Shown piece after piece: positions 433-31,927 of a DNA stretch of 32,000 nucleotides (within the stretch, counting starts at the first letter, position 1; every line of letters starts with the position of its first letter). The stretch lies in assembly GCA_041494705.1 (NCBI GenBank), contig JBGQBI010000001.1, positions 60,001-92,000 of the forward strand. The letters are read 5' to 3'. This DNA comes from Candidatus Methanoperedens sp. (lineage in GTDB: Archaea; Halobacteriota; Methanosarcinia; Methanosarcinales; Methanoperedenaceae). The notes below the pieces were generated by a model that saw only the letters and a list, made by a program, of their open reading frames with translations, did no database searches and was not told the origin of the DNA. A program made the translations under genes and the position numbers.

Positions 433-963
433 ATGAAAAAAGATTTAGATTGTTCAGCAAAAGAGAAAAATGAACAAAAAACAAGCCTTTTATTGGATTG
501 GAATTATTGCAAGTATTTTAGGAATATTAGTTTTGGACTTTATTGCTATGACAAGTGGACGGAAGTTAAATACGAAGGAGAATTAAAAACTTATTATGGT
601 GACACAAGAGTTATTTTCGGTAGTAATATTTTTATTGGAACCCCCAATATTTTGGTTGTAAACGAAAAGCCGATTTTTACCTCAGCCGTCAAAAATGGTA
701 AACTGTTTATAAGCATAATTATTTTTGATCGTGATGGAAAAGTTGTTGCCCAAATTGATGAGAATAAATGGTTTATCAATAAAAATAACTACTTCAGAAT
801 GGATATTTCAAACTCAGAAATAAAAGTAACTAATCAACAAGGTGAAGTTGCATTGGATGCTATTGCTCTGCCTGATGGGGCGGTCAAGGTTAATGGGACA
901 TTCTATATAGGTGGGAGAAAAATAATTGCAACTGATCAAGGGCTAACAATTATGGCGGATTGA
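433..963 (+). CDS. Hypothetical protein in an AT-rich islet, with a beta-rich C-terminal part. The N-terminus is probably frameshifted relative to a TM-anchor ORF at 470..586.
   Basis: 176-aa ORF. Its first ~45 aa are Cys/Trp/Tyr-rich and not protein-like. The +1 frame from ATG 470 encodes MNKKQAFYWIGIIASILGILVLDFIAMTSG..., a clean TM anchor, which stops at 584-586. Confidence 0.4.
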   Translation: MKKDLDCSAKEKNEQKTSLLLDWNYCKYFRNISFGLYCYDKWTEVKYEGELKTYYGDTRVIFGSNIFIGTPNILVVNEKPIFTSAVKNGKLFISIIIFDRDGKVVAQIDENKWFINKNNYFRMDISNSEIKVTNQQGEVALDAIALPDGAVKVNGTFYIGGRKIIATDQGLTIMAD

Positions 964-8121: not shown

Positions 8122-8128
8122 TATGAAC

Positions 8129-8160
8129 ATAACAAGAATGTTATATAACAAAATTGTTAT
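8129..8160. promoter_or_regulatory. Two abutting 16-bp palindromes, ATAACAagaaTGTTAT and ATAACAaaatTGTTAT; possible operator or terminator at the islet boundary
   Basis: Read directly from the sequence. Their junction forms a third perfect 12-bp palindrome, TGTTATATAACA (8139-8150). The element lies 8 nt after the stop of the FAD oxidoreductase. Confidence 0.5.
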
Positions 8161-8310
8161 GCGGGCAAAAATATCGAGGCGCTTGCGAAAGGGGATTACT
8201 TTCACATACCTTTAATAAAGGATATATCCGAAAATTTATCAATGTATGCCATATCAAAAAATCGAATGGATTACTGGTGATTGAGGCAAAAGAGATACGA
8301 TTGGTGCAAT

Positions 8311-9807
8311 ATGAAAATTATTCTTGATACAAATATCCTAATTCACATAGAAGATCCAAAGGAGCTATCTAAAAATCTCCAAGATTTACTGAAGATATTT
8401 CGTGAACACGGGCATCAAATATTCATCCACCCGGCATCATTAAGAGATATAGACAATGACCAAAATGAATCCCGAAAAAAGGTTATTTTATCTAAATTAA
8501 ACGGCTACCCGCTTATAGAATCACCACCAAAACCAACAGATGACTTTTTATCCGCAGTAGGGATGGTATCAAATTCCAATGAAATAAACGATAATGAAAT
8601 ACTTTTTGCGATCCAGCGAAATGCGACTGATTTTTTAATTACTGAGGATTATGGTCTTCAGAAAAAAGCAATTCGAGCGAACCTTGAGGATCGTGTGCTA
8701 TCTCTCGATTCGGCATTGGATTATTTTAAGAATCTTTATGCAAGAAAGGCATTACATCATACCCTCTTAAAAGAAGTTTTAGTTCGCAGCCTTGATATAG
8801 AAGACACATTTTTTGATTCTTTAAAAGAGGATTATGGGAATTTGGATTTCAGGGATTGGTTTAAAAGGAAATCAATAGAAGGGCGAAAATGCTGGGTATA
8901 TCGTGAAAACGATAATATCAAGGCACTTTTGATGCTGAAAGAAGAAAATGAGACTATCCCGACATCTCCCCCTATACCGGCAGCAAAGAGACTGAAGATA
9001 GCTACGTTGAAAGTAGATATACCCGGCTCCAAGATGGGCGAGCTTTTTTTGAAAATGGCATTTCAATATTGCATTAGTAACCATATTTTTGAAGCTTTTC
9101 TCACCCATTATCGCAAACTTGACGACCGATTGATACCTCTCATTGAGAATTTCGGATTTGAATTCAGAGGATTTTTAGAAGAACGTAAAGGGATGATGGA
9201 AAAAGAGGAAGTTTATCTTAAAAAACTCATTCCAATAGAAAAAGATTTGCCGCCGATGGATTTAGCGAAAAAATATTATCCATCTTTTAAAGACTCTCCA
9301 AGCATTAGAAAATTCTTAATACCCATTATGCCCGAATATCATGACAGGCTTTTTCCAGATTTTAAAAAACGACAGATGAGAATTACCGATTATTTTGAGA
9401 TTAATATTCCTGGGAATGCTATTAAGAAAGCATATCTTTCGGGCTCGGCAATCAAAAAAATAAGACCTGGAGACCTTCTTCTTTTTTATCGGTCTCATGA
9501 CCTGAAAGCAATAACATCTATCGGGGTTGTTGATCGTGAACCTGTTCACACGAACGAGCCAGAAAAGGTAGTGAGCATAGTTGGGCAAAGGAGTGTATAC
9601 ACTTACGAAGAAATAAAGAACAAAACTCAAGAGGGTGTTTTAGTAATTCTTTTCAGGCATCATCTTAATCTGCCAACGTCTCCTGACTTAAATTATCTTC
9701 GGACTCATAATATTCCAGTGCCCCAGACAATTATAGAATTAAATCATAATCAATATCTAGCTATCAAAAAAGGAGGGAAATTGGATGAACGTTTTACTGT
9801 CAGTTAA
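8311..9807 (+). CDS. Multidomain protein: N-terminal PIN-like nuclease, central GNAT-like acetyltransferase, C-terminal ASCH/PUA-like domain
   Basis: PIN: MKIILDTNILIHIED, NDNEILF, DFLITEDYGL (acidic residues at canonical positions). GNAT-like: LKIATLKVDIPGSKMGELFLKMAFQY followed by LIENFGFEF. C-terminus: FLIPIMPEYHDRLF...GDLLLFY...ITSIGVVD...VPQTIIEL runs parallel to the neighbouring ASCH protein. ATG 8311 is preferred over TTG 8281. Confidence 0.6.
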   Translation: MKIILDTNILIHIEDPKELSKNLQDLLKIFREHGHQIFIHPASLRDIDNDQNESRKKVILSKLNGYPLIESPPKPTDDFLSAVGMVSNSNEINDNEILFAIQRNATDFLITEDYGLQKKAIRANLEDRVLSLDSALDYFKNLYARKALHHTLLKEVLVRSLDIEDTFFDSLKEDYGNLDFRDWFKRKSIEGRKCWVYRENDNIKALLMLKEENETIPTSPPIPAAKRLKIATLKVDIPGSKMGELFLKMAFQYCISNHIFEAFLTHYRKLDDRLIPLIENFGFEFRGFLEERKGMMEKEEVYLKKLIPIEKDLPPMDLAKKYYPSFKDSPSIRKFLIPIMPEYHDRLFPDFKKRQMRITDYFEINIPGNAIKKAYLSGSAIKKIRPGDLLLFYRSHDLKAITSIGVVDREPVHTNEPEKVVSIVGQRSVYTYEEIKNKTQEGVLVILFRHHLNLPTSPDLNYLRTHNIPVPQTIIELNHNQYLAIKKGGKLDERFTVS

Positions 9808-10261
9808 ACCAAAATATGCCGAGGAAATACTATCAGGCAGGAAAAAATACGAGTTCAGAAGGTCTATTTTTAAGAAACAGAATATAGAAAGGGTCTATAT
9901 TTATTCCAGTTCACCTGTAAGTAAAATCGTTGCCGCATTTGAGATTGAACAAATCCTGAAGGGTTCCCCTGAGAAGATCTGGAAGTTATGCCATAAATAT
10001 GCGGGTATATCAAAAAATGATTTTTTCGCTTATTTTAAAAATTCCGATGTGGCGTATGCAATTGAAATTGGGAATGTCGATAGTTTCCTAAACCCGATAG
10101 ATCCACATCATATAATTGAAGATTTCAAACCACCTCAGTCGTTCTATTATGTACCATTAAGTTTTCTCCTGAATCAATTTGATGGTCAATGTAATCAGGT
10201 GCAGAAATATACGCATTTGAGTGAACATTTTTCTGGAATTCCTCTGATAAATAAAATTTGA
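9785..10261 (+). CDS. ASCH-domain protein (PUA-like fold)
   Basis: LLSVKPKYAEEILSGRKKYEFRR...VYIYSSSPVSKIVAAFEI...PPQSFYYV is the classic ASCH pattern. It overlaps the upstream gene by 23 nt. Confidence 0.8.
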   Translation: MNVLLSVKPKYAEEILSGRKKYEFRRSIFKKQNIERVYIYSSSPVSKIVAAFEIEQILKGSPEKIWKLCHKYAGISKNDFFAYFKNSDVAYAIEIGNVDSFLNPIDPHHIIEDFKPPQSFYYVPLSFLLNQFDGQCNQVQKYTHLSEHFSGIPLINKI

Positions 10262-10302
10262 TTATTTAATCTATTTATGAAACCCTATATAGTGTAAAAA
10301 TT

Positions 10303-16089: not shown

Positions 16090-17157
16090 ATGAATAAAAA
16101 CAAGTCAAATCTTAAAGCAATTGATTTCTTTTGCGGTGCCGGAGGAATGACAAACGGTTTCCGTAAAGCTGGAATTGAAGTAATTGCTGGAATTGACATT
16201 GACGGTGAATGCAAAGAAACATATGAAAAGAACAACAAATGTTCGAATTTCATTCTTGCGGACTTAAAAAAACTTTCTTTTGAGGAATTTGAAAGGCAAA
16301 CTGGAATAAAAAAGAATGACGATAATTTAATTTTCATAGGTTGTAGTCCTTGTCAATACTGGACACTACTTAAAACAGACAGAACCAAATCCGAAGAATC
16401 GAAAAATTTATTAGTCGATTTTCAAAGATATGTTGAAGAATATAATCCAGGATATGTTGTTATTGAAAATGTTCCTGGCATACTTACAAAAGAAGGAAGT
16501 CCTTTAAATGATTTCTTGGAATTTCTAAAAAGTAAGAATTATACTCACGACAAAGCGATTATTAATGCTTACAAATTCGGAGTGCCTCAAACAAGGAGGA
16601 GGTTTTTGTTGATTGCATCAAGAGTGAACATAAACATAAAACTTCCTAAGCCGAGAACAAAAAAAATTCCTACGGTTAGAGATTTTATTTCCGAATCAAA
16701 TAGATTTCCAAAATTGAAAGCGGGAACATTTGATAGCACTTTTAAAATACATACTGTTGCCGGATTATCAGAACTAAATTTACGCCGCTTAAAATTGACA
16801 ACGAAAAATGGCGGAACAAGGTTATCTTATGTAGATGATAAAGATTTAGCAGTTCCATGCCAATACCAAAAGAAAAATTCTTTTCACGACACTTATGGCA
16901 GAATGCATTGGGACAAGCCCGCCCCCACTATCACTACAAAGTTTTTCAGTATTTCAAATGGACGTTTCGCTCATCCGGAACAAGACAGAGCCATTTCGTT
17001 GAGAGAAGGAGCAACACTTCAAACTTTTGATATATCATATAAGTTTTATGGCAAAAATATTGCTTCGATTGCCAAACATATCGGTAATGCTGTTCCTCCT
17101 GCTTTATCAAAAAAAATTGCTTTATCAATAATAAAACTCCAAAATCATGAGCGATGA
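16090..17157 (+). CDS. dcm: DNA (cytosine-5)-methyltransferase
   Basis: Motif I FFCGAGGMTNGF, motif IV GCSPCQ, motif VI ENVPG, motif VIII QTRRRF, motif X GNAVPP. Confidence 0.92.
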   Translation: MNKNKSNLKAIDFFCGAGGMTNGFRKAGIEVIAGIDIDGECKETYEKNNKCSNFILADLKKLSFEEFERQTGIKKNDDNLIFIGCSPCQYWTLLKTDRTKSEESKNLLVDFQRYVEEYNPGYVVIENVPGILTKEGSPLNDFLEFLKSKNYTHDKAIINAYKFGVPQTRRRFLLIASRVNINIKLPKPRTKKIPTVRDFISESNRFPKLKAGTFDSTFKIHTVAGLSELNLRRLKLTTKNGGTRLSYVDDKDLAVPCQYQKKNSFHDTYGRMHWDKPAPTITTKFFSISNGRFAHPEQDRAISLREGATLQTFDISYKFYGKNIASIAKHIGNAVPPALSKKIALSIIKLQNHER

Positions 17158-18775
17158 AAAATTAATAATGACATTTGAAGCAAACACCATAAAGCATTTG
17201 GGTGTTAAAATGTATGCGAATCTGCCGCCTGCATTGGCAGAATTGATTGCTAACGCCTATGATGCCTGTGCAACGAAAGTGTTCGTTCGTTTATATGATG
17301 GTGCTGAAAAAAAAGTAATTGTTGAAGATGATGGTGTAGGAATGTCATTTGATGAAGTTAATGACTTCTTTTTGAGAATCGGAAGAAACAGAAGGGAAGA
17401 AAATCAAAAATCACCTTGTGGCAGAGTGCCTACAGGAAAAAAGGGTCTAGGGAAATTAGCACTTTTTGGAATTGGAGATACAATAAACATTACTACGAGT
17501 CAAGGAGAAGAAGGAGTTAGTTTCAATCTTGATTGGAACGAAATCCTTAGTTGGAAGGGTAGTGATTACGAACCAAAGTTTAGCATTTTGCCTAAAGGTA
17601 AAACTCCAAAAGGAACAATAATTACCTTAACGAACCTGAAGAGGAAAACAGGTTTTCCTGTTGAGGATTATGCCGAAAGCATAGCGAAACTATTTAATTT
17701 TCAAGATAAGTTTATTGTGTATTTATCTTTGAATGATGCTAAACCCATTAAAATTGATAGCAAACTGAAATATGAAAACATAACTCCCGAATTTGAGTGG
17801 GACATTCAAAAAATCATTGGGGTAAATAAGGAAGATTATGCTGATAAAAAAGAAATTCAAGGTACAGTTTTTACAAATGAAAAACCTTTAAAGTCAAATG
17901 CAACAGGTATTACATTGTTTGCAAATGGCAGAATGGTAAATATTCCAGAATTCTTCGGGTTGTCTGGTTCAAGCAATTTTTATTCTTACGCAACTGGCTG
18001 GCTCAATATTGATTTCATTGATAATTGGGACGAAGATGTTATTTCTACAAACCGCCAATCAATAGATTGGGAAAATGCAAGAACTTCTGAATTGAGAAAA
18101 TATCTTGCTTCTTGCATTTTAATCATTGAAAGACAGTGGAGAGAATCAAGAAAGGTAAAGAAGCAGGAAAATATTACCAAAAAGGCGAACATAGATGTCA
18201 AGGATTGGACGAATAAGTTGCCTGAGAATGCTCAGGGGCAAGTTGAAACTATTGTCAATATTTTGGATGATACGCCTGAATTATCAGAAGACACACAACA
18301 AAAAGTAATTAAACTTCTTCACGAAATCGCTCCCGAATATGCGAACTTACATTGGCGTAACCTGGATAACGAAATAAAAATTGCTTCTGAAAGGTATTAT
18401 CAAAATGCAGATTATTACACTGCATTTCTTGAAGCATTGAAGAGATATAGTCAAGAAGTAAGAGCTAGGTCAGGAAGCAGCAATGGAAGTGAAAGAAGTA
18501 TGATGGGGGAAGTTTTTTCAAATAGAAAACTTTCGGTTACAAAAAAGTATAAAAAAACAGATGGAACAAATTTTTTACCAGATTCAATAGAAAATATTGA
18601 AGCTGGACAGCAATATTTGTCAGAAGGTATTGTAATGGGCGGTAGAAATCCTCTTTCACACGAGGAACATGTAGAGTTAAGTAAAACAGGATTGTTTTCG
18701 GAAAAAGATTGCTTAGATTATTTAAGTTTACTTTCCCATTTGTCTAGACGATTAAATGATGCTGAAAAGCCCTAA
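17147..18775 (+). CDS. GHKL-superfamily ATPase (MutL/MORC-like HATPase_c) fused to a C-terminal Ymh/TIGR02391-like domain
   Basis: N box ELIANAYDA, G1 box DDGVGM, G2 box GKKGLGKLALFGIG. The C-terminus (YYTAFLEALKRYSQEVR...GGRNPLSHEEH...CLDYLSLLSHLSRRL) matches my recollection of the TIGR02391/Hypoth_Ymh family. It overlaps dcm by 11 nt. Confidence 0.72.
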   Translation: MSDEKLIMTFEANTIKHLGVKMYANLPPALAELIANAYDACATKVFVRLYDGAEKKVIVEDDGVGMSFDEVNDFFLRIGRNRREENQKSPCGRVPTGKKGLGKLALFGIGDTINITTSQGEEGVSFNLDWNEILSWKGSDYEPKFSILPKGKTPKGTIITLTNLKRKTGFPVEDYAESIAKLFNFQDKFIVYLSLNDAKPIKIDSKLKYENITPEFEWDIQKIIGVNKEDYADKKEIQGTVFTNEKPLKSNATGITLFANGRMVNIPEFFGLSGSSNFYSYATGWLNIDFIDNWDEDVISTNRQSIDWENARTSELRKYLASCILIIERQWRESRKVKKQENITKKANIDVKDWTNKLPENAQGQVETIVNILDDTPELSEDTQQKVIKLLHEIAPEYANLHWRNLDNEIKIASERYYQNADYYTAFLEALKRYSQEVRARSGSSNGSERSMMGEVFSNRKLSVTKKYKKTDGTNFLPDSIENIEAGQQYLSEGIVMGGRNPLSHEEHVELSKTGLFSEKDCLDYLSLLSHLSRRLNDAEKP

Positions 18776-18777
18776 TT

Positions 18778-19197
18778 ATGGCAGACATTTTTTCCAAAAC
18801 GAAACGCAGTGAAATAATGTCTAAAATTCGGGCGACAGAAACAAAGCCCGAAAAAATTGTTCGCAGTTTTCTTTTCGCAAAAGGTTTTCGTTATCGTAAA
18901 AATTTAAAATCACTCCCTGGCAAACCGGACATTGTTTTATCGAAATACAAAACAGCAATTTTTATCCACGGCTGTTTTTGGCACGGACACAAGAACTGCA
19001 AAGCTGCAACATTACCGCAGACAAGAAGAAACTTTTGGACTGATAAAATTAATGACAACAAAAAACGAGACGCAAAGAATTACAAGGAATTAAAAAAATC
19101 CGGATGGAAAGTAATTACCATTTGGCAATGTCAAATAAAAAATAAAAGTAAACAAGAAAGAACATTAAATCGTGTTGTAAATAAAATAATTAATTAA
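18778..19197 (+). CDS. vsr: Very-short-patch-repair endonuclease
   Basis: SEIMSKIR..TKPE...LF..GFRYRKN...PGKPDIVL...AIFIHGCFWHGH is canonical Vsr. Starts 2 nt after the upstream stop. Confidence 0.9.
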   Translation: MADIFSKTKRSEIMSKIRATETKPEKIVRSFLFAKGFRYRKNLKSLPGKPDIVLSKYKTAIFIHGCFWHGHKNCKAATLPQTRRNFWTDKINDNKKRDAKNYKELKKSGWKVITIWQCQIKNKSKQERTLNRVVNKIIN

Positions 19198-24395: not shown

Positions 24396-25277
24396 TTACA
24401 AAAAATTATCCCATTTTTCTTTAAGCCATTTTATAAACCTTCTGCTTTCCTGAATAGCTTGTGGGAGTGCCAATATTGCTGATGGGATGGATATTATTGC
24501 AATTGCTAAAGCTAATATTCCCAAATATAATGAGTTCATGGTAGCCTTATCCAAATCTAGTTTCATTGGGTCCGGATGAATCTTATAATCAATAAGAAAA
24601 GGACTCATTATATTGCTGTTCTCATTATACCACCATTCTATGGATTCCCCTCTTCCAAATGATGTGCGATAATCATATTTTGGAAATGTATCCAAAATTT
24701 CTTCCCAATAATAAGGGTCGTTGGGTAAATTCACTTTAATAATAAGAGATTGAACATTTTTGTTGGGGAATGGCAATAAATAAAATATAAACTTACTATA
24801 GTCTCCCGTGTTTGAAGAAATTTGAATAATTTTGGTTCTTGTTCTAATTGTAAGTAGCTGGTTCTTAAGAAAAGTAGTATATTGACCACTTTTGGGGGAT
24901 ACTGCAATAACATATTCATGAATATATGTAGAATCGCTGTTTTTAGGGGATATAGTATAATTTCTAATAGAGTAATTATAACTAGTATAATTATCTCCCA
25001 CTGAAACCTCCGTTAGATTTGCTTTTTCTTTTGAAAAAGAGGTTATACGTATAGGAATTTCTAACGGAGTAGATGAATCCCATTCAAAATTATCATCTAG
25101 ATTCTGATATCTGATTATAGTTACGAGTTCACCATTGCCATCCAAATCTAAGGAAAAGGTATAAGTAGCAAAAATGTATGTGTTTGGAAAATTGACCGTT
25201 GCTTGGGCAGATTGAGTGCCGAATATGACCGTTGCTAAAAGCAGAGCAAAGAACACATATAGCGCTTTTTTATACAT
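24396..25277 (-). CDS. Hypothetical secreted or membrane-anchored protein in an AT-rich islet
   Basis: N-terminal signal-like segment (ALYVFFALLLATVIFGTQSAQA). C-terminal TM helix (LYLGILALAIAIISIPSAILAL). Asn/Tyr/Ile-rich. No motif I recognise. Confidence 0.5.
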   Translation of the reverse strand: MYKKALYVFFALLLATVIFGTQSAQATVNFPNTYIFATYTFSLDLDGNGELVTIIRYQNLDDNFEWDSSTPLEIPIRITSFSKEKANLTEVSVGDNYTSYNYSIRNYTISPKNSDSTYIHEYVIAVSPKSGQYTTFLKNQLLTIRTRTKIIQISSNTGDYSKFIFYLLPFPNKNVQSLIIKVNLPNDPYYWEEILDTFPKYDYRTSFGRGESIEWWYNENSNIMSPFLIDYKIHPDPMKLDLDKATMNSLYLGILALAIAIISIPSAILALPQAIQESRRFIKWLKEKWDNFL

Positions 25278-31331: not shown

Positions 31332-31535
31332 ATGAAAGATGCTTTAGAATATTTCAGAGCAAATCTTGTGAATATGATTGCCAAATACGAAGGGGAGTAT
31401 GTCGCCATCATTGAAGATAAAATCATAGCTCATGGCAAAGATGTAAAAAAGGTCTACCAAGAGGCAAAAGATAAATTTCCTAAAAAGGTTGTGTTCTTAG
31501 GTCAGGTTCCGAGAAAGGAGGCTCTGATTCTTTGA
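31332..31535 (+). CDS. Small DUF5678-like protein
   Basis: YEGEYVAIIEDKIIAHGKDVKKVYQEAKDKFP...VVFLGQVP fits my recollection of the DUF5678 pattern (xWVAIxDGKVVAxG...). ATG 31332 is preferred over the upstream alternative start. Confidence 0.5.
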   Translation: MKDALEYFRANLVNMIAKYEGEYVAIIEDKIIAHGKDVKKVYQEAKDKFPKKVVFLGQVPRKEALIL

Positions 31536-31927
31536 GAAAATGTTTCAAGTTTGCAAAGGAAAATTCTTCAAGTCTCGGGATTGTTTATAGACCGATAGCG
31601 AAAGTGGGTTTGAGAGATGCCGGTGGAGATTTGTTCGAATTAAGCATGCTGGTTGATTCCGGTGCCGATATAACGATTCTTTCGAAAAGAATAGGTGATA
31701 TAATGGGCGTGAATGTGGAACAGGGTGAGGCAAAAGTATTCCGGGGAATAGTTGGGGAAATGATAGCTTATGTCCATGAAATACCGCTGTTCATAAATGG
31801 AAAGGAAATTGAAACGAGAGTAGCATTTGCCCTTTCCGAAGTACCAAATTTATTGGGCAGGCTGGATATTTTTAAAAATTTTGAGATAAGTTTCAGGAAA
31901 GAAGAGGATTTTTGCTTCAGCGATTGA
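31532..31927 (+). CDS. Retropepsin-like aspartic protease
   Basis: LVDSGADITILS (the D-S/T-G-A catalytic motif) and a C-terminal NLLGRLDIF (LLGRD-like) motif. TTG start in a TTGA overlap with the upstream gene. Confidence 0.7.
   Translation: MRKCFKFAKENSSSLGIVYRPIAKVGLRDAGGDLFELSMLVDSGADITILSKRIGDIMGVNVEQGEAKVFRGIVGEMIAYVHEIPLFINGKEIETRVAFALSEVPNLLGRLDIFKNFEISFRKEEDFCFSD

Follow-up and report, generated by a model that had tools for sequence, protein, structure and literature searches.

A PIN-GNAT-EVE/ASCH gene pair of the PDC-M11 family, a candidate toxin-antitoxin-like module, in a cargo hotspot of a Candidatus Methanoperedens genome

Operons that join a gene for a large PIN-GNAT-EVE fusion protein to a gene for a small ASCH protein have been noticed repeatedly by comparative genomics. 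Iyer et al. 2013, as cited in later work (PMC7641849), described PIN-GNAT-PUA/EVE proteins with a second PUA/ASCH gene and proposed base acetylation. Matelska et al. 2017 reported PIN-GNAT-PUA proteins with a second PUA/ASCH gene in the families PIN_15 and PIN_17 (PMC5499597). Bell, Wolf & Koonin 2020, crediting Iyer et al. 2013, called these loci '(PIN)-GNAT-EVE' toxin-antitoxin-like operons and tied the PIN form to type I restriction-modification (R-M) and the PIN-less form to prophages (PMC7641849). The pair also stands in PADLOC as the phage defence candidate PDC-M11; the PDC systems are predictions based on 'guilt-by-embedding' within defence loci that were already known (Payne et al. 2024, 10.1101/2024.01.29.577857). 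Here we describe a member of this family, genes A and B, in a stretch of 32,000 nucleotides (nt) from Candidatus Methanoperedens sp. (GCA_041494705.1, contig JBGQBI010000001.1, positions 60,001 to 92,000 of the forward strand), hereafter the window. The original prediction, made on the window from its letters alone, did not recognise the three-domain architecture as a described system. This was wrong, since the architecture is already described in the three publications above, as PDC-M11 and, for PIN-less homologues, in a phage record with the names GevT/GevA.

The pair occupies the following positions of the window (GC, guanine plus cytosine fraction).

8122 to 10302, no strand: low-GC inserted block between the stop codon of the FAD oxidoreductase gene and the start codon of citG, GC 0.34-0.38, flanks 0.44-0.51
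8311 to 9807, plus strand: gene A, 498 amino acids (aa) from an ATG, PIN-GNAT-EVE fusion (PDC-M11A)
9785 to 10261, plus strand: gene B, 158 aa, stand-alone ASCH protein (PDC-M11B)

The gene calls of the source contigs give the same coordinates for A and B. A TTG at 8281 was considered as an alternative start of A and judged less likely because homologues begin with MKI or MRI and the source-contig calls use 8311. The GC content is 0.36 in gene A and 0.34 in gene B, compared with 0.51 in the FAD oxidoreductase gene upstream and 0.48 in citG downstream. The AT-rich two-gene block that had been predicted between the FAD oxidoreductase and CitG genes was thus confirmed by the open reading frame (ORF) coordinates and the GC figures. 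The genes on either side (purP-like, FAD oxidoreductase, citG, DUF447, fae-hps and carB) have housekeeping roles and are those of a Methanoperedens-like archaeon, and the closest homologues of A are found in Ca. Methanoperedens.

Protein A matched the PADLOC profile PDC-M11A (PDLC04422) with an E-value of 7e-143, residues 1-497 aligning to profile positions 1-500 of 501, and protein B matched PDC-M11B (PDLC04424) over its full length (E 1.8e-49). The domain order of A, PIN followed by a GNAT fold and an EVE/PUA-like domain, is that of the family. Judged from these profile matches, the assignment of the pair to the (PIN)-GNAT-EVE plus ASCH family, or PDC-M11, is secure. The window pair resembles the published operons in the domain order of A and in the downstream ASCH gene. 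It has no AAA_17 ATPase gene and no helix-turn-helix (HTH) on its ASCH protein, and structurally we found no difference. The family is linked to type I R-M and other defence genes (PMC7641849, PMC5499597), whereas the window copy is solitary in a housekeeping neighbourhood.

The same profiles also match a pair of named genes in Escherichia phage PhiR47_2 (PV340567.1). A PIN-less homologue labelled 'GevT toxin' matched PDC-M11A (E 2e-133) and aligned with residues 161-497 of A, and its partner, labelled 'GevA antitoxin', matched PDC-M11B (E 7e-52) and is 47% identical to B. GevT/GevA of this and related lambdoid phages thus share PDC-M11A/B membership and a 23-nt gene overlap with the window pair. 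They differ from it in that GevT has no PIN domain and the genes are bacterial, prophage-borne and adjoin cI. In phage lambda, the position beside cI is where rexAB sits.

When A was scanned as a single sequence with Pfam and NCBIfam, EVE and NYN (E 0.15) were the only matches and both fell below threshold; family-wide Pfam scans were required to place its domains. Profile searches with the PIN and EVE regions against PDB sequences returned nothing significant; these two regions were placed by structure comparison and Pfam only. The AlphaFold model of A has a pLDDT of 86 and a pTM of 0.76. Residue conservation was calculated over 133 cluster representatives that are 32-47% identical with A. 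The domains are laid out as follows.

8311 to 8745 (aa 1-145), plus strand: PIN domain, VapC-like, with acidic residues D6, D50, D94 and D113, plus E14
8770 to 9240 (aa about 154-310), plus strand: GNAT-fold domain with a divergent, near-invariant motif-A-like loop G239-x-K241-x-G243-E244
9274 to 9804 (aa about 322-498), plus strand: EVE/PUA-like domain, residues 354-368 of low model confidence

The N-terminus of A had been read as a PIN nuclease, and the family-wide data agree. PIN_3 was matched in 27 of the 29 N-terminal domains of diverse family members, and the acidic residues are well conserved (D6 98%, D50 90%, D94 98%, D113 99%, E14 90%). A model of residues 1-150 alone (pLDDT 88) gave structure matches to VapC11, VapC15, PAE0151, SMG6 and Utp24. 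The PIN acidic site is thus intact and RNA cleavage is predicted. We detected no other nuclease family in A with Pfam and family-wide scans, and no helicase/ATPase module in the Pfam and NCBIfam scans or in the structural model.

A GNAT core in the centre of A, also part of the original prediction, was borne out. Foldseek placed this region on many GNATs, including PaiA, Naa50, NatD and HP0935, a family profile aligned with the motif-A region of Naa50 (E 8e-4), and Acetyltransf_1 was matched in 7 of 28 full-length members. The loop of A reads x-G239-x-K241-x-G243-E244 against a canonical R/Q-x-x-G-x-G/A; the two loops are of equal length, and that of A is nearly invariant. G239, G243 and E244 are conserved in 94-99% of the representatives, W183 and K304 in 100%, and K229 falls within 94-100%.

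For the C-terminal domain, P324, P338, F348, Y375, Y393 and F448 are 100% conserved, the Pfam EVE domain was matched in 21 of 28 full-length members, and Foldseek found ZmASCH (E 1e-6, TM-score 0.78) and the EVE protein 2GBS. The suggestion that this end of A is ASCH-like therefore stands for the PUA-like fold, as the ZmASCH match attests; as a name, EVE is better than ASCH. Likewise, the segment-by-segment parallel that had been drawn between the C-terminus of A and B holds at the level of the fold and fails at that of sequence similarity, for hhalign of the A C-terminal domain against the B family gave a probability of 1.9%. On this basis we discarded a recent duplication as the origin of the two PUA-like modules. 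Because of the residue conservation in the 133 representatives, all three domains of A are, on the sequence evidence, strongly constrained, and catalytic-type residues are conserved in every domain.

The two genes overlap at the following elements.

9772 to 9777, plus strand: GGAGGG Shine-Dalgarno-like element for B, within the conserved GG..DERF tail of A
9785 to 9807, plus strand: dual-coding overlap of A and B, 23 nt

The overlap, from which co-translation had been proposed, is exactly 23 nt long in 73 of 77 related loci, and also in ORFD/ORF5 of prophage psiM100 and in GevT/GevA of the E. coli phage, such that the exact length spans archaea, bacteria and phages. GGAGG or GGTGG elements occur at the equivalent position, in the GG..DERF tail of A, in other loci. 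Among the 77 loci with room for a downstream B homologue, 76 have one directly downstream on the same strand, which shows that the pair is syntenic in other genomes. The conserved overlap therefore indicates a tight translational coupling of A and B. Of note, the tail GG-x-x-DERFT-x of A (window 9760-9807, and all related loci) holds the Shine-Dalgarno-like element, the start codon and the first seven codons of B. Dual coding may account for part of the conservation of this tail.

Protein B scored 22.6 bits against Pfam ASCH, above the gathering cut-off of 21.2, as expected for the stand-alone ASCH protein that had been proposed. The B family profile aligned end to end with ZmASCH (PDB 5GUQ/5GUS) with an E-value of 3e-19. 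The ASCH octapeptide of B is G18-R-K20-K-Y-E23-F-R25, in which K20, E23 and R25 are invariant, and the motif GxKxxExR was found in 115 of 120 B homologues and in 71 of 75 translated loci. The C-terminal tail of B is variable beyond about residue 125. The invariant Y40 and S119 of B correspond to Y47 and S128 of ZmASCH, which are nucleic-acid-binding residues of a protein that binds single-stranded nucleic acid and cleaves single-stranded RNA in vitro (PMC5615036). In a 2026 preprint, 19 ASCH proteins, including ZmASCH in vitro, strip N4-acetylcytidine (ac4C) from tRNA, and the K and E/T of the octapeptide are essential or catalytic in these tRNA-ac4C deacetylases (bioRxiv 10.64898/2026.02.27.708502). 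B is like these enzymes in its end-to-end profile alignment and in its GKER-type octapeptide, and the ZmASCH homology together with the intact GxKxxExR makes B a possible enzyme of the amidohydrolase type.

Other records of this ASCH subfamily were observed. B matched NCBIfam PRK12279, '50S ribosomal protein L22/unknown domain fusion protein' (E 3e-11), in its non-L22 part. Some bacteria therefore seem to carry an ASCH domain of the B type joined to a ribosomal protein, and this fusion hints at a translation-related target. Many stand-alone B homologues (P0121, P0127, P0130 and others) are labelled 'type I restriction enzyme S subunit' by JGI, a label that was probably carried over from ASCH-HsdS fusions such as that of Methanohalophilus. 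In Zymomonas mobilis (L151:4825-5952; L numbers denote the loci compared here) the ZmASCH gene is preceded, 48 nt upstream and on the same strand, by a gene whose 375-aa product matched nothing in Pfam or PADLOC and is not similar to A. We rejected ZmASCH as the ASCH part of a Zymomonas version of the pair since this neighbour is unrelated to A (BLASTP E 1.9); it may be a different partner of the same ASCH subfamily.

Related genomes use the FAD-oxidoreductase/citG junction as a hotspot for cargo. In the related metagenome contigs L110, L086 and L087 it is empty (33-157 nt). The same junction holds an HNH nuclease gene in L085 (5038-5811; PADLOC HNH, E 3e-99), a PDC-S09/M05A-like pair of MNT nucleotidyltransferase and HEPN-like genes in L137 (434-1287), and a reductase gene in L088 (2873-3931). 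In L001 and L003 the A/B pair lies between the same flanking genes as in the window, and contig L002 begins just upstream of A and continues downstream with citG and DUF447 as in the window. Between L003 and the window A is 86% identical and the flanking proteins are 95-98% identical; A is diverging faster than its flanks. Neither a target-site duplication nor an integrase gene was found at the islet. The window copy has the appearance of a lone cassette that entered the cargo hotspot from elsewhere. The earlier view of the block as a mobile islet was supported by the junctions that are empty or hold other cargo, by the low GC and by the plasmid and phage carriers.

The family of A comprises 1814 representatives at 50% clustering, nearly all of about 490-510 aa, and a pattern scan found relatives in 320 of about 185,579 species genomes. 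The best 80 of these are mostly archaea (Methanosarcinales, Methanomicrobia, Micrarchaeota, Asgard, Thermoplasmata and Altiarchaeales), with a few scattered bacteria. In 30 of 74 loci hsdM, hsdR or hsdS is found no more than 4 kb from the pair, and 15 of these loci have such genes on either side; AlbA_2/HATPase_c_4, YhcG, MNT and GmrSD genes are recurrent neighbours. Proximity of the fusion and its ASCH partner to defence genes is thus seen in the family, and this neighbourhood of hsd, GmrSD, YhcG and AlbA_2 genes is in line with PMC7641849 and with the way in which the PDC systems were predicted, guilt-by-embedding (10.1101/2024.01.29.577857). Outside this lineage, the closest relatives (L004-L014) lie within type I R-M loci. 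The nearest R-M genes to the window pair are those of a Dcm/restriction endonuclease/Vsr islet about 6 kb away. The pair or its homologues occur in 32 plasmid and 15 phage records, among them prophage psiM100, but only 6 IMG/VR contigs were matched. PIN-less GNAT-EVE plus ASCH pairs are common. The window copy is not within a prophage.

In psiM100 itself (L154, NC_002628.3, 4001-5846) ORFD is a PIN-GNAT-EVE protein 38% identical to A. ORFD lies largely within the annotated 'inserted fragment IFa'. The ASCH gene that overlaps it, ORF5, is given in the annotation as common to psiM100 and phage psiM2. If the annotation of ORF5 is correct, psiM2 would have kept the ASCH gene without an intact large gene.

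We consider it probable that the pair is a mobile toxin-antitoxin-like, virus- or plasmid-related conflict module in which A would be the effector and B the antidote. We infer the toxicity, the antidote function, the substrate and the anti-virus activity of the pair. A modification-linked toxin/antitoxin or abortive-infection role had been guessed from the sequence; as a guess about the kind of system it agrees with the published comparative-genomic predictions, and as a guess about mechanism it remains at the level of inference. In the module that we favour, the EVE domain of A would dock on nucleic acid, probably on RNA or tRNA or on DNA with a particular base, and the GNAT-fold domain would acylate the docked target or bind acyl-CoA. 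The VapC-like PIN domain, with its acidic site intact, would cut RNA. B would be the antidote, made in fixed proportion to A via the conserved 23-nt overlap, and would either bind A or, as an amidohydrolase, reverse the modification that A makes.

A more specific form of this toxin-antitoxin-like module is tentative and, in our view, possible but doubtful. It has the logic of DarTG, in which a toxin writes a mark on nucleic acid and a hydrolase antitoxin removes it. The GNAT domain would write an N-acyl base mark on tRNA, other RNA or DNA, the EVE domain would pick the target and B would remove the mark. Cleavage of the marked RNA by the PIN domain would be added in the form that is found in archaea and within R-M loci. 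DarTG itself works by ADP-ribosylation and a macrodomain, and its folds and chemistry differ from those of A and B. This writer/eraser form stays alive because the GKER motif of B is intact and deacetylase activity is reported for its relatives.

The pair can further be set beside the classical toxin-antitoxin systems VapBC and TacAT/AtaRT. It is like them in its VapC-like PIN with an acidic site, its GNAT fold and its compact, coupled two-gene operon. It differs in that both toxin-type domains are fused in A with an EVE reader, and in that the large gene comes first and the partner is an ASCH protein instead of a ribbon-helix-helix (RHH), AbrB or HTH protein. Compared with type II systems of the VapBC and GNAT-RHH kinds, A keeps the PIN acidic residues, whereas a DNA-binding antitoxin domain was not found in B.

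Several observations weigh against a toxin-antitoxin-like module. The GNAT loop G-x-K-x-G-E departs from R/Q-x-x-G-x-G/A, and Matelska et al. 2017 considered motif A degenerate and the domain probably inactive (PMC5499597). B shows only an ASCH domain, with no RHH, AbrB or HTH in the Pfam scan; HTH-ASCH fusions occur in other lineages (PMC7641849) and in plasmid annotations too. ZmASCH did not lower ac4C in vivo (10.64898/2026.02.27.708502) and, although it is the nearest solved relative of B, it has no A-type partner in Zymomonas; unlike B, it adjoins no PDC-M11A gene. The window copy is not embedded in R-M genes and sits between housekeeping genes. Searches of the literature for PDC-M11, 'PIN-GNAT-EVE' and GevT/GevA found no experimental study of any PIN-GNAT-EVE/ASCH pair. 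PDC-M11 is a candidate by prediction, for which the searches gave no validation, and the names GevT and GevA are depositor annotation for which they gave no paper.

The linkage to hsd genes could also be taken to mean that the pair is a modification-dependent, restriction-like accessory of type I R-M, in which EVE and ASCH would recognise a base of incoming DNA, in its modified or its unmodified state, and cutting would fall to the PIN domain, with no toxin-antitoxin behaviour. We regard this as unlikely. The pair is often found within hsd operons, EVE and other PUA-like domains are modified-base readers in defence, an ASCH-HsdS fusion is known in Methanohalophilus (PMC7641849), and many B homologues bear the JGI label of S subunits. 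However, the nuclease is a VapC-like PIN, a class that acts mostly on RNA, and type IV modification-dependent restriction enzymes use DNA nucleases of the HNH, PD-(D/E)XK, GIY-YIG or PLD families instead. PIN-less pairs are common and are labelled toxin/antitoxin, and therefore the system does not centre on its nuclease; the accessory role would also leave the strongly conserved GNAT domain without a function, and the window copy has no adjoining R-M partner. The departure of motif A from the canonical R/Q-x-x-G-x-G/A (PMC5499597), together with the intact PIN acidic residues, would instead suit a toxin-antitoxin system of the VapC type, with the PIN domain alone catalytic, the GNAT-like domain an inactive scaffold or ligand sensor and the ASCH protein an unusual protein antitoxin. 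This too seems improbable to us, as the conservation of G239, G243, E244, K229, W183 and K304 (94-100%) is above what a scaffold usually needs, and as it is the PIN-less forms, which retain GNAT-EVE, that bear the 'toxin' label.

Phage Mu Mom modifies the bases of its own genome to evade restriction. Similarly, GNAT-EVE might acylate the DNA or RNA of the element that carries it, as protection against restriction, with ASCH as a regulator. The base acetylation proposed by Iyer et al. 2013 and the GNAT-EVE form in prophages, both as given in PMC7641849, and the homologues in lambdoid phages and psiM100 fit such a self-marking enzyme. However, the form with a PIN domain is found on chromosomes, in linkage with R-M loci, the matched IMG/VR contigs are few (the 6 mentioned above) and the window copy lies outside a prophage, and we hold this counter-defence role to be quite improbable. 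Least probable is a housekeeping role in RNA modification, in which the two proteins might, for instance, write and erase ac4C on tRNA or rRNA. Although GNAT and ASCH chemistry are combined here and ASCH proteins deacetylate tRNA ac4C (10.64898/2026.02.27.708502), the distribution is patchy (320 species genomes), the site is empty in close relatives, the composition is low in GC, and the genes are carried on plasmids and prophages. The ac4C writers TmcA and NAT10 join a helicase/ATPase module to their GNAT domain, and A has no helicase domain of this type.

The intergenic part of the block upstream of A holds two further elements.

8129 to 8160, no strand: two tandem 16-nt palindromes, ATAACAAGAATGTTAT and ATAACAAAATTGTTAT, 3 matches compared with 0.2 expected
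8211 to 8229, plus strand: TTTAATAAA followed by the palindrome GGATATATCC, read from the sequence and kept upstream of the pair in L001 and L003

Within the window, palindromes ATAACAAGAATGTTAT and ATAACAAAATTGTTAT are confined to 8129-8160. The double palindrome recurs directly upstream of citG at the empty site of L086. We therefore ruled out these palindromes as the ends of the islet, and because they are also found at the empty site they look like a native intergenic element of the backbone and not like cargo. They may act as a backbone operator or terminator. The element at 8211-8229 is a candidate archaeal TATA-like promoter element of the pair.

The window contains other low-GC genes. 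A second islet (16090-19197, GC 0.33-0.35) lies between fae-hps and carB. Its products are a Dcm-type C5-cytosine methyltransferase, a HATPase_c_3/Hypoth_Ymh protein of 542 aa with matches to PADLOC type II restriction endonuclease models, and a Vsr nicking endonuclease. The fae-hps/carB junction of L003 is about 2.7 kb long and is without homologues of these three genes. Two low-GC ORFs, 24396-25277 (minus strand, 293 aa) and 433-963 (plus strand, 176 aa), both with a GC of about 0.32, matched nothing in Pfam or PADLOC and may likewise have been acquired. ORF 31532-31927 (plus strand, 131 aa) gave a weak match to PADLOC PDC-M52B (E 3e-4).

The A/B family is widespread and deeply conserved and is carried on plasmids and prophages. 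It combines a PIN RNase, GNAT acyl transfer and PUA-like base reading, which are separate in other conflict systems, with a partner whose ASCH family was recently reported to erase ac4C from tRNA. What is new here is the synteny in 76 of 77 loci, the 23-nt overlap in 73 of 77, the hsd linkage in 30 of 74, the sites that are empty or hold other cargo of defence type, the residue conservation and the homology of B with ZmASCH. The window copy adds no architecture to the family; it offers a clean archaeal case, a pair on its own at an insertion hotspot that is well defined, and specific residues as targets for mutation. The family itself is an attractive experimental target. If the writer/eraser mechanism were true, the pair would represent a new class of nucleic-acid modification in immunity.

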